DNA of 64,000 bases from Spirochaetia bacterium (GTDB taxonomy: Bacteria > Spirochaetota > Spirochaetia > CADAEX01). This document shows, piece by piece, positions 32,719 to 34,482 of this stretch. The notes below the pieces were generated by a model. That model was not told the origin of the DNA and did no database searches. It saw only the letters and a list, made by a program, of their open reading frames with translations. The translations under genes and the position numbers were made by a program. Within the stretch, counting starts at the first letter, position 1; each line of letters starts with the position of its first letter. The stretch lies in assembly GCA_963662795.1 (NCBI GenBank), contig OY759746.1, forward strand, positions 416,001-480,000, in the 5' to 3' direction.

Positions 32719-32801
32719 GGGCAACAACAGAAGAGGATGTTAAGAAATCAGTTAAATCAATTATTTTAGCAAGAGAGAATGTAAGAAAAAAACTTCTAAC
32801 A

Positions 32802-34393
32802 CATATAAGGCCCGGGATGTCAAGGAGAAGTTAAAAGACAAAAAATTAACGGCGGCTATCCAGGAAAAGGAGCCTGCAGCAAAGAGCACAGATAAAGTCC
32901 ATTTTGTTTAAAAAACGTTGTTTGAATCGTAATTCACCGGATAGTGCAATCTGGTAAACGCAGTTTGCACCAAACACATATCGACGGTCATGCAAAAACA
33001 TGTCGTAGAATCACATCGTTACCCGGATTCCGCCTGATGCAATTGAATGGATTCAAGATCCAGTTAGGTCCGCAGGTCAGACCGGGACAAACTACGAATA
33101 TAAACAAAACAAATCACATATAAAAAAGGACCGGAATATCAGTCTAATCAACACGCAGGGAATCGCGGTTTAATAAGCAGGATACGGGAAAACAGTCTTG
33201 CTGTAGTTGTAAGGTGTATCTTAATGTGAGCTTACCGCATGGTGTTCCAGTTAGGTGACAGGCTCTGATATTCCGTCCTGGAAAAACTTGTTAAAGCTGA
33301 ACGGTTGTGAACGTCTTAGCATGTAATAAACGACACGGCCAAGTTTTTGAGCAATTATGGATAATGCTTTTGACTTGCCATATTTGTTGACCATTTTCTG
33401 ATGAAGTTTTTTAGCAGGTTCATTTTCACGCAGGAATAATACTGCTGCTTCACTGAATGCCCACTTCAGATGAGAGTTGCCAATTTTGTTGTTTCCACCC
33501 TTCATGCGTTTACCTGCAGATTCATGGGAACATTTGACAAGGCGGCTGTATGAGATAAAGTTCCCAACATCAGGGAATCGGTTGATATTCTGAATTTCGT
33601 AAAGAATGACTAAAGAGAGTATTTCCCCGATACCAGGAATACTTTTCAAAAGATGCAGAGACACCGGATCATGATATTTTGCCTGTCGTTTGATTTCGGC
33701 TTCCAGGTCAAGTATCAGCCTATGGAAAGCATCAGCGAGAAACATGTCGGCTTGTATATTTTTTTGAGCTAAAGGATTACTGAACTGTTCTGGAAGGGTT
33801 TCCCGATATGAAGAGCTTCGAAGCCGTTTTTCAAGCGGGGTAAAATTGTACTGCGAATTGGTATTCTGGATGTGAACAAACAGTTCCGCCTGATGTCGGA
33901 CAAAGTATTCCCGTCTTCGCAGAAGATCTCGGGTTGCCCGCATTTCTTTTGGATAGACATACGCCTCAGGGAACATCCCGCCCCTGAGCATAGAGGCAAT
34001 TTTTTCTGAATCGATACGGTCATTTTTTGTTTTGCCGCCGTGAATTGCTTTCATGTATAAAGCATGTCCAAGAACGAATGGAATTGCCTGTTCCGTACAA
34101 AAATCAGCAATCCAATACCATGTGAATATGCATTCGACACCAATGACGATGTCTTTTCCGTAAGGGGAAATTGCATTGAGCAGCTGCTGAGGATTTGAAG
34201 GTACATTTTTATGCAGGAGAATCAATCCCTGATTGTCGATTACACAGATGTACATAGTTCTTGCATGCAGATCAATCCCAATGTAGAATTGATGCAGTTC
34301 TTTATAGAATCTCATAAAGGTTCCTCCATGGTTTGTATTTGATGGTCAGTGGTAGTTTACCACGTTTTCAATCGAGGACCTTTATGAGTATCA
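32802..34393 (-). mobile_element. IS110-family (IS1111-like organisation) element inserted in an attC site
   Basis: CA core duplicated at 32800-32801 and 34392-34393; TTGACATCCCGGGCCTTATATG end; about 450 bp non-coding region downstream of the transposase. Confidence 0.85.
33251..34315 (-). CDS. IS110 DEDD recombinase/transposase, intact
   Basis: YIGIDLH, GVEC, KNDRIDS, SIPGIG, HESAGK, GN.HLK. Confidence 0.95.
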   Translation of the reverse strand: MRFYKELHQFYIGIDLHARTMYICVIDNQGLILLHKNVPSNPQQLLNAISPYGKDIVIGVECIFTWYWIADFCTEQAIPFVLGHALYMKAIHGGKTKNDRIDSEKIASMLRGGMFPEAYVYPKEMRATRDLLRRREYFVRHQAELFVHIQNTNSQYNFTPLEKRLRSSSYRETLPEQFSNPLAQKNIQADMFLADAFHRLILDLEAEIKRQAKYHDPVSLHLLKSIPGIGEILSLVILYEIQNINRFPDVGNFISYSRLVKCSHESAGKRMKGGNNKIGNSHLKWAFSEAAVLFLRENEPAKKLHQKMVNKYGKSKALSIIAQKLGRVVYYMLRRSQPFSFNKFFQDGISEPVT

Positions 34394-34482
34394 ATTGTTT
34401 CAATAGCGACAATGCTATGCTCATATACATTCACGTAAAAAACATGCACCAATTTAAGTGTTGCGAGTTAAACAAATTGTAC
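34394..34482 (+). repeat. attC site, right part (left R'' TTCTAAC at 32794-32800)
   Basis: TTGTTT-C-AA pairs with TTAAACAA (extrahelical base), CAATGCT pairs with AGTGTTG; R' disrupted (GTAC). Confidence 0.7.

Follow-up and report, generated by a model that had tools for sequence, protein, structure and literature searches.

Introduction

In the IS1111 group, insertion sequences (ISs) have subterminal inverted repeats that measure about 11-13 bp and are accompanied by short asymmetric terminal extensions of 7 bp on the left and 3 bp on the right. In this work we analysed a stretch of 64,000 nucleotides (hereafter the window) from a Spirochaetia bacterium (assembly GCA_963662795.1, contig OY759746.1, positions 416,001 to 480,000 of the forward strand), in which an element with these features, mapping to positions 32802-34393, appears to be inserted in an attC-type site. 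Members of the group are described as having a longer non-coding region downstream of the transposase gene, tnp (PMC11187229; PMC11208160), and ISKpn4, ISPst6 and ISPa25 are reported to be attC-targeting members of the IS1111 family (Post & Hall 2009 and Tetu & Holmes 2008, both as cited in PMC11187229; Siddiquee et al. 2024, PMC11187229). SeekRNAs of attC-targeting members have been demonstrated experimentally (PMC11187229); these RNAs are short (82 nt in the case of ISKpn4), with a top-strand match placed 5' of a bottom-strand match, the two overlapping in the target (PMC11187229). Since, in addition, bridge RNAs have been predicted in 93% of the IS1111 elements of ISfinder (PMC11208160), the kind of system considered here is already known. 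In the IS110 group, the bridge RNA system described is that of IS621 (Durrant et al. 2024, PMC11208160; Hiraizumi et al. 2026, PMC13626964), for which handshake guides are also reported (PMC13626964). Finally, group IIC-attC introns have been described as attC-homing mobile elements of gene cassettes (PMC3001079).

The element of the window resembles ISKpn4, ISPst6 and ISPa25 in its DEDD transposase, in the long non-coding region downstream of tnp (the tail), in its subterminal inverted repeats, in that nothing is duplicated beyond the shared bases, and in its fixed-orientation insertion at one attC end. As in the ISKpn4 seekRNA, a short stem-closed RNA region, predicted here, would carry a top-strand match 5' of an overlapping bottom-strand match. 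It differs from the three named elements, to which it is likened by these features, in the host range of its clade, extending far beyond Proteobacteria, and in the presence of two target-type units in the tail. With IS621 it would share separate internal loops for target and donor, with guides lying over a 2-nt core; unlike in IS621, the predicted RNA region is located 3' and not 5' of the gene, the element has long subterminal repeats, its guides come in the reverse order and a third, target-type loop is found in the tail. Specific homing into attC sites is a property that the element has in common with group IIC-attC introns, which, however, are retroelements combining a ribozyme with a reverse transcriptase, unrelated to it in protein and mechanism.

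All together, the data presented below make it highly probable, in our opinion, that this is an IS1111 element that inserts at one end of attC sites and whose DEDD transposase is guided by a predicted RNA from its tail.

The element has the layout of the IS1111 group

The transposase gene (33251-34315, on the minus strand, like all the features of the element given below) is an intact open reading frame (ORF) of 354 aa with matches to both PF01548 (E 9e-14) and PF02371 (E 5.1e-19), and it scores 186.8 bits against the NCBIfam model NF033542, 'IS110 family RNA-guided transposase' (cut-off 140). Residues D15, E61, D99, D102 and S266 are invariant in an alignment of 13 sequences, comprising the transposase and 12 relatives, and we take them to be the equivalents of the IS621 transposase residues. 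An alignment to the solved IS621 transposase (8wt6) was obtained for the C-terminal domain (E 9e-9), a further likeness between the two proteins, while the N-terminal domain is barely alignable by sequence, a further difference. An N-terminal DEDD RuvC-like domain combined with a C-terminal Tnp domain and a catalytic serine, as read from the sequence, places the protein in the IS110 family.

The non-coding stretches flanking tnp measure 78 nt on the 5' side and 449 nt on the 3' side, in accordance with the IS1111 layout. Read in transposase sense from 34393 downwards, the element consists of TG-ATACT-CATAAAGGTCC, the leader, the gene, the tail and GGGCCTTATATG-TG. The left subterminal inverted repeat, CATAAAGGTCC, maps to 34376-34386 and is directly preceded by the 7-nt extension TGATACT (core included), while the right subterminal repeat and terminus, GGGCCTTATATG, was located at 32802-32813 from the sequence and the tail alignment. 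When CATAAAGGTCC is compared with CATATAAGGCCC, the reverse complement of 32802-32813, 10 of 11 positions pair, with one indel, as in repeats of the IS1111 type; the right extension amounts to 0-3 nt, depending on which end of the imperfect repeat is chosen. In addition, the two repeats covary: position RD+10 and the right-end column are complementary in 38 of 39 relatives.

The core dinucleotide reads CA on the plus strand and TG in transposase sense. Comparison of the ends places it at 32800-32801 (right end) and 34392-34393 (left end), and TG is found at both ends family-wide. As a preliminary description of this locus had proposed, the duplication is limited to CA, which alone is common to the two junctions. 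With one copy of the core counted, the element spans 1592 bp (32802-34393), its ends being established from the 39 relatives having both ends, and it is present in single copy in its own 3.93-Mb genome, as determined by DNA search and tblastn. A -35-type hexamer, TTGACA, is located in the right end (32818-32823), its TTGAC being near-invariant in 48 tails, and a putative -10-like hexamer, GATACT, can be read in the left end (34387-34392); in the predicted circle, the former would be followed after 17 nt by the latter. In the IS1111 group, insertion leaves no target duplication and the circular intermediate has a promoter spanning its junction; such a promoter is reported for ISEc11 (PMC11187229).

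In conclusion, on the basis of its gene, ends and layout, the 32802-34393 segment is an intact IS110-family insertion sequence of IS1111 layout. This agrees with the preliminary description, which had recognised an intact IS110/IS1111-type recombinase and all of whose strings were recovered where it had placed them.

Relatives insert at one end of attC-type sites

Relatives of the element were searched for in two public collections. The scan of one genome per species confirmed 308 of them, from which the best 79 loci (54-78% identity) were taken, and the scan of metagenome contigs confirmed 576, from which the best 80 loci (up to 68% identity) were taken; altogether, 884 relatives were confirmed and 159 loci, at most 78% identical to the element, were examined. 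A protein search returned at least 8000 matches at E 1e-30 or better and, among the matches listed, the best foreign one was 78% identical and one cluster was 99% identical. The labels of the genome loci span many phyla; Treponema, Spirochaetaceae, Spirochaetota or Alkalispirochaeta is the label of 23 of the 79, one of which is an isolate of Treponema bryantii.

Writing the junction as a hyphen, the left ends of the relatives read TG-ATACTCAT(T/A)..AGGCC, with TG-AAAATCATTAAGGCC in the Treponema set, and the right ends CTTGACA..GGCCTTATA(N)G-TG. The left flanks are of the GTCGGCT..GAA..T or GTCAGCTGCAGCG..T type (L''-type), while the right flanks, TTAGGC, TTATG, TTACAC or TTGGGC, correspond to GTTRRRY when the G of the core is included, in transposase sense. 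All the relatives with readable ends are inserted in one orientation, at the RYYYAAC (R'') end of attC-type sites. When the empty sites were rebuilt and read by eye, 11 of 27 showed a clear R''...L''...L'...R' arrangement with a matching GTT box (L010, L013, L016, L025, L028, L029, L037, L058, L072, L078 and L080). Insertion on the R'' side and in one orientation, as judged from these ends and flanks, is the behaviour reported for ISKpn4, ISPst6 and ISPa25 (PMC11187229) and the one expected of an attC-targeting IS1111 element. Because it is common to all the readable relatives, attC targeting characterises the clade as a whole and is no accident of this locus, and the attC-targeting element that had been proposed from the window alone finds support wherever ends can be read.

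Among plasmid records, the best transposase identity was 56.5%, and none of the 14 records at least 49% identical to the transposase comes from Klebsiella or Pseudomonas. One plasmid relative, from Vibrio campbellii (54.8%), lies in an attC-type site. An IS on a Pseudomonas aeruginosa plasmid, considered as an ISKpn4-like relative, was discarded, having only 32% identity and different ends. No named attC-targeting IS was identified among the plasmid matches, of which two records were opened, and a literature search found no attC-targeting IS1111 element for Treponema. Given that plasmid identity does not exceed 56.5% and that neither Klebsiella nor Pseudomonas is represented among the 14 records, the clade may be a deep lineage separate from the named attC-targeting elements.

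The local target site is of attC type in three of its parts

On the plus strand, the target begins with an R''-type box, TTCTAAC (32794-32800), at the 3' terminus of a remnant ORF of cassette-like type, and resumes on the other side of the element (34394-34484) with a spacer ATT, an L'' box GTTTCAATAGCGAC (34397-34410), an L' box GTTGCGAGTTAAAC (34459-34472), a spacer AAATT and GTACAGG. The L''-type and L'-type boxes are about 48 nt apart. Excision of 32802-34393 joins TTCTAACA to ATTGTTTC, and the rebuilt site can fold into a 10-bp stem with one bulged A. From these boxes we conclude that the R'', L'' and L' parts of the local site, as rebuilt, are of attC type.

Several observations weigh against this assignment. 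The R' position reads GTACAGG and not GTTRRRY, with no GTT, and the folding energy of the rebuilt site falls within that of shuffles, both for the top strand (-7.9 kcal/mol, z -0.65) and for the bottom strand (-8.0, z -0.84). Furthermore, a home-made attC scan of the window, which paired RYYYAAC with GTTRRRY through an L-box stem and is crude enough to miss attC sites, detected nothing above background, with 8 candidates on both strands versus 4-22 in 20 shuffles. Non-cassette genes also lie between the site and a broken integron-integrase gene. The target might then be a chance look-alike, or a decayed relic unlinked to an integron. We consider this decidedly unlikely, as the R''-, L''- and L'-type boxes occur in canonical order and spacing, and the site lies between the 3' end of a small ORF and cassette-like ORFs that have array repeats of the same genome on either side. 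Moreover, a copy of the element from another study, presented below, occupies a site whose first 10 nt are the same and which continues with a typical L''-type sequence. The integrase gene itself also speaks for a link: frameshifted but directed toward the window, it lies 3 kb before the window start and 36 kb upstream of the site (C1:412035-413206; L167:236-1407), and its two overlapping reading frames match TIGR02249 over positions 4-184 (175.5 bits) and 183-282 (140.2 bits). Of the attC-type hairpin put forward in the preliminary description, the stem with its bulged A and the three boxes thus stand, while the R' box is non-canonical and the folding energy remains at chance level.

As for the immediate surroundings, the small ORF remnant that ends at the site has its 5' part cut off by an IS3-family element (31520-32668), and on the 3' side there follow an array hairpin repeat (34465-34552), two small ORFs, an array-type repeat of full length (from 35473) and another IS3-family element. 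The locus is therefore an islet between two different IS3-family elements, one on the plus strand (31520-32668) and the other on the minus strand (35763-37177). The two copies of the array repeat that lie here, outside the large array described below, comprise the hairpin part only (34465-34552) and the full-length unit (35473-35760), and they flank a DUF3795 ORF (34619-35070) and an OmdA-like ORF (35218-35475). A 20-nt hairpin word, ACAGGTAGAGTAATTACCTG, is found at 34480-34499, where the R' box of the local target would be expected, and at 45 further places in the genome, usually with TGT just before it; with up to 4 mismatches allowed, 38 matches are on the plus and 8 on the minus strand. 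Many of these words lie directly before the array hairpin at cassette 3' ends and others are scattered. In addition, a degenerate tyrosine-recombinase remnant with five in-frame stops (Phage_integrase, E 1.9e-6) is present on the minus strand of the window at 20972-21325.

The large array, located outside the window in the same genome, extends over 328 kb (C1:1,851,044-2,178,740) and contains 151 of the 156 matches to the repeat family, all on the plus strand and spaced 0.9-10 kb. In each unit, a GC-rich hairpin (AGTCCGGCC..GGCCTGGACAAGAAG) precedes a long structured site (about 190 bp), which begins ..TAAC-AG and ends ..GTTA.., resembling an oversized attC. Just upstream of the array and in the same direction, a tyrosine recombinase gene (L168:274-1299) encodes a protein scoring 200 bits, in two stretches, against the integron-integrase model (cut-off 265), its best match being a XerA-type model (214 versus 220 bits). 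Possibly, this region is a cassette array of very large size whose integrase is atypical. For the array of T. succinifaciens, transposases are mentioned without names in the published description (PMC3607928).

The tail is a conserved and structured region

Forty-eight tails could be aligned over their full length, and RNAalifold, run on 66 non-redundant tails, returned four helices, A to D. In these helices 94.5% of the cells are paired, versus 78.8% in shuffled alignments and 29-55% when the partners were slid by 1-3 columns. Changes on both sides were observed in 14 of the 16 helix pairs, and none of 500 shuffles reached any of five measures; such shuffles ignore sequence relatedness, whereas the slid control does not.

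In the element of the window, helix A is formed by 33088-33091 with 32964-32967, helix B by 33082-33086 with 33022-33026 and helix D, 5' of the word termed motif 2 below, by 33003-33006 with 32984-32987. Helix C is one step off register in the alignment, yet it appears as CCUG/CAGG in the single-sequence fold, which gives the same helices (B and C) for the segment that we term unit 2 (33022-33086). Here the two helices, backed by compensatory changes, would close an internal loop and an inner hairpin, and the segment is predicted to be a short seekRNA and target-binding loop. A local hairpin 3' of motif 2, recovered in folds (32943-32971), competes with helix A, in which its first bases can alternatively pair. 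Further upstream in the tail, a consensus scan that yielded 3 sites versus 1.3 expected picked out a terminator-like hairpin followed by a T-run (33129-33144), located between motif 1 and the circle-junction word, both described in the next section.

Two results count against the RNA proposed here: single-sequence folds of the tail are no stabler than shuffles (z -1.21 and -0.72), and Rfam 15 gave zero matches at E up to 1 over window positions 30000-37000. Nevertheless, the pairing and compensatory changes of the alignment support the prediction that the tail is a conserved structured RNA region.

Some tails of Treponema-labelled relatives contain extra DNA. In L012 and L013 (alignment A1, columns 223-297) an insert of about 75 nt lies directly after the CCGGTCC block; in L020, inserts break up the motif-2 region; and in L067 an unrelated gene follows the transposase gene in place of the usual tail.

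Words in the tail follow the ends and flanks of their own elements

The preliminary description had pointed to words of the tail that match the junctions of the element, and had suggested covariation among homologs as a check. Across the family, these words do track the ends or flanks of their own elements. The permutation tests used below ignore kinship among the sequences.

The clearest case is motif 2, ATATG-TG-TTTGG (32970-32981), the 3' strand of the putative donor loop, which is composed of 5 nt from the right end, the core and 2 nt from the right flank. In its family form, ATA(N)G-TG-TT, the variable base is the one present in the right terminus of the same element in 78 of 83 distinct elements, and each of the four bases occurs. 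In the window, the word AACACATAT is found both at the junction (32798-32806) and at 32973-32981, against an expectation of 0.72 per 64 kb and of about 0.005 for the tail; the reading of this word as a match to the junction is thereby confirmed by covariation with the right end. The other strand of the loop, between helices B and D, would be GATGTGATTCTACG (33004-33017), a putative guide whose family consensus, GATGAGTTTCTAGG, is partly complementary to the left end ACTCAT. Column-wise mutual information found no covariation of the GATGTGATTCTACG region separable from clade markers; overall it returned only the right-end signal and such markers, and a 7-mer match map showed the motif-2 site and little more.

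In unit 2, the 5' strand of the loop is ACCTAACTGG (33060-33069), in which ACCTAAC can pair with the target GTTAG (core G and right flank TTAG), a pairing read directly from the window, and the 3' strand is CAATTG (33040-33045), which repeats the left flank CAAT together with the TG of the core. The two words overlap at the core and together specify 10 nt, with an exact fit to the occupied site. For CAATTG, a candidate guide word that adds to those already proposed, the corresponding N-TG block of the family scored 2.51/6 against flanks, versus 1.97+-0.09 when permuted (0 of 2000 permutations, n=86), the element of the window reaching 4/6. For the NTAAC guide, tested on 56 distinct pairs from 75 usable loci (16 being without the motif), the fourth base of the right flank agrees in 59% versus 41+-5% permuted (0 of 1000 permutations) and the third in 59% versus 53% (reached in 93 of 1000). 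The word CCAGTTAGGT, which occurs in the window only at 33060-33069 and 33247-33256 (0.03 expected per window; two copies in 0 of 100 shuffles), was thus rightly singled out, being part of a family-wide block that covaries with the right flank.

The second of these copies includes the first CTAACTGG block (33247-33254), that of unit 1, which overlaps the stop codon of the transposase gene. TAACTG is located close to the stop codon in 104 of 123 relatives, and both there and in unit 2 in 90 of 123; some way downstream of each copy, a TTGAnTnGGAC-type block is found family-wide. It is therefore plausible, on this arrangement, that the two TAACTG...TTGAnTnGGAC modules derive from a tandem duplication of one module.

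Unit 1 includes motif 1, CCCTGCGTGT-TG-ATTAGAC (33142-33160), which by covariation is a left-flank guide of the family and the stronger one. Its family form, N5-TG-A(T/A)T, combines 5 nt of the left target with the core and 2 nt from the left end. The five bases agree with the left flank in 50-72% per position versus 28-37% permuted, with no signal past position -5, and the mean score of 3.81/8, versus 2.62+-0.11, was reached in none of 3000 permutations (n=107). The two bases after the TG, AT or AA, follow the left end in two clade-tracking states. At the locus under study this guide does not fit: CGTGT (33151-33155) faces the flank ACAAT with a score of 1/8, among the lowest 11 of 107, a result that weighs against a fully guided insertion, and in the element's own genome the target predicted by motif 1 has no match, only near matches at chance level. 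The duplicated guide unit envisaged earlier is accordingly plausible as a family arrangement, with a unit-1 guide that mismatches the occupied site.

Finally, TTATATGTGAT (33113-33123) reproduces the circle junction exactly as predicted, with 7 nt from the right end followed by the core and by 2 nt from the left end. As ATCACATATAA, it occurs once in the window, at the same positions, with 0.10 expected per 64 kb and about 0.0007 for the 449-nt tail. In the variable stretch between motif 1 and helix A, where it lies, the longest word shared with the own circle junction averaged 5.18 among relatives versus 4.62+-0.10 (0 of 300 permutations, n=61), and the antisense control was not significant (reached in 88 of 300). 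Many relatives have GGTGAT, AGTGAT or CGTGAT in this segment, in step with their own right-end base, and the 11 nt of the window element are the longest such match; the relatives' own junction words, found in the same segment, lend support to the 11-mer proposed earlier.

Could these words be something other than guides? Conservation of the tail is lowest around the 11-mer, which is found immediately behind the terminator-like hairpin and within a weak promoter-like match; this word might be an AT-rich by-product of a terminator T-run combined with a weak promoter, or else the right end copied internally, and the CTAACTGG blocks might be protein-binding or structural. The covariation of CTAAC is small, because CTAAC varies little, and only the fourth flank base stands out; the neglect of relatedness in the permutation tests points the same way. 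However, GC-rich relatives without the T-run still have GGTGAT, AGTGAT or CGTGAT following the right-end base, motif 2 follows the terminus through four states, and seekRNAs with matches of this sort have been demonstrated experimentally for ISKpn4 and ISPst6 (PMC11187229). We therefore regard an origin of the words unrelated to guiding as very improbable. In conclusion, the tail words match both strands of the target, overlap in it, lie in a conserved fold and covary with ends and flanks, as would be expected of a seekRNA or bridge RNA, and we treat them as predicted guides.

A proposed model for RNA-guided insertion at attC ends

The model that we infer, which covers RNA production and binding, the roles of the loops, the promoter and present mobility, is as follows. 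The DEDD transposase would work with an RNA from the 449-nt tail. Excision would join the ends through the TG core to give a circle, whose junction promoter (TTGACA, 32818-32823, 17 nt, GATACT, 34387-34392) could drive both the transposase and the tail RNA. The unit-2 loop (33022-33086) would expose ACCTAAC and CAATTG, reading both strands of the 10-nt target CAATTGTTAG around TG. The loop between helices B/D and A would hold the donor, with motif 2 (32970-32981) reading the element's own right end and the opposite donor strand probably being read by GATGTGATTCT. Motif 1 would read the left-junction type, and the word at 33113-33123 the circle junction. The 2-nt extensions of motifs 1 and 2, which resemble the handshake guides of IS621, might act like them, and motif 1 with the first TAACTG would constitute a second target-type unit.

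An extension of this model is that the tail encodes tandem target-binding units of the form TAACTG...N5-TG-AnT, whose left-flank guides evolve separately, giving a dual-address guide system. As the guides of the two units differ in the window (CGTGT versus TCAAT), one RNA region would carry two target addresses. We consider this extension unlikely, and we would hold just as tentatively its variant in which one address serves integration and the other excision or direct transfer. Two preprint abstracts are leads in this respect, though no evidence for the present element: for another IS110 element, a truncated target-loop RNA is stated to cooperate with the bridge RNA and, for IS621, a match to just half of the bridge RNA is stated to be able to suffice.

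Copies elsewhere and mobility of the element

The element was also found in contigs from three other studies (runs X4, X6 and X7), which inform on presence and flanks only. A further run, X1, contains the entire window with no difference and may be its source. Run X4 contains pieces with 0-2 differences over 167-349 nt, and one of its contigs reads as the window over 34394-34403 and then continues with 103 divergent letters including an L''-type continuation. In run X6, a groundwater metagenome, contig record 17 covers window positions 32797-34267 with a copy about 95% identical; this copy lacks 139, 17 and 23 nt inside the transposase gene and is hence decayed, and its right-end flank has only TAACA in common with the window. 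In run X7, 15 nt of the right-end flank are common with the window, after which the sequence differs. The copies elsewhere keep ATTGTTTCAA or TAACA next to the element despite their different flanks. Mapping of other copies, which had been suggested with the expectation of TAAC-A in attC sites, thus gave a concordant picture: attC-type sites in the relatives, and TAACA or ATTGTTTCAA in the copies of other studies. From the near-identical copy beside a different attC-type flank, it follows that the lineage moved recently.

Within its own genome the element meets 63 TAACAATTG sites, all unoccupied and close to the roughly 70 expected from base composition, a finding that counts against the model. 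Together with the single copy, it indicates that a match of 9-10 nt is insufficient, or that the element is inactive. The element might be intact in sequence but stranded, having arrived with, or jumped once into, the cassette remnant, with no leaving or spreading and with no acceptable site available in the genome. The flanks do not satisfy all of the guides, motif 1 scoring 1/8 against the left flank, and no genome site fits the motif-1 target; circle formation by ISEc11 is reported to need the correct target on both sides (PMC11187229), and the deletions of the X6 copy are further in keeping with stranding. On the other hand, no damage is seen in the ORF, the catalytic residues, the ends or any of the four RNA helices, the match of unit 2 to the site is complete, a near-identical copy lies by a different attC-type flank in another study, and excision of IS621 is said in a preprint abstract not to need target complementarity. 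On balance, a stranded element appears to us a possible but rather doubtful explanation, and we favour that of an element guided to attC ends by its tail RNA.

Significance for the family

IS1111 elements that target attC disrupt integron cassette arrays and give them new shape, and they have programmable RNAs. The element described here leaves the established view of the family unchanged; it is nonetheless a distinct member, being at most 78% identical to anything found and below 60% to any plasmid record. What may be new is the breadth of the clade and the two target-type units, both of which are perhaps already in the supplements of PMC11187229, as well as an occupied site that satisfies only one of these units. 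The clade extends over many phyla, Treponema and other spirochaete-labelled genomes included, and the natural variation of its flanks and ends provides a covariation map of RNA positions versus the DNA positions that they would read. In addition, the second target unit and the guide mismatch at the occupied site offer leads on the complementarity needed by these recombinases.

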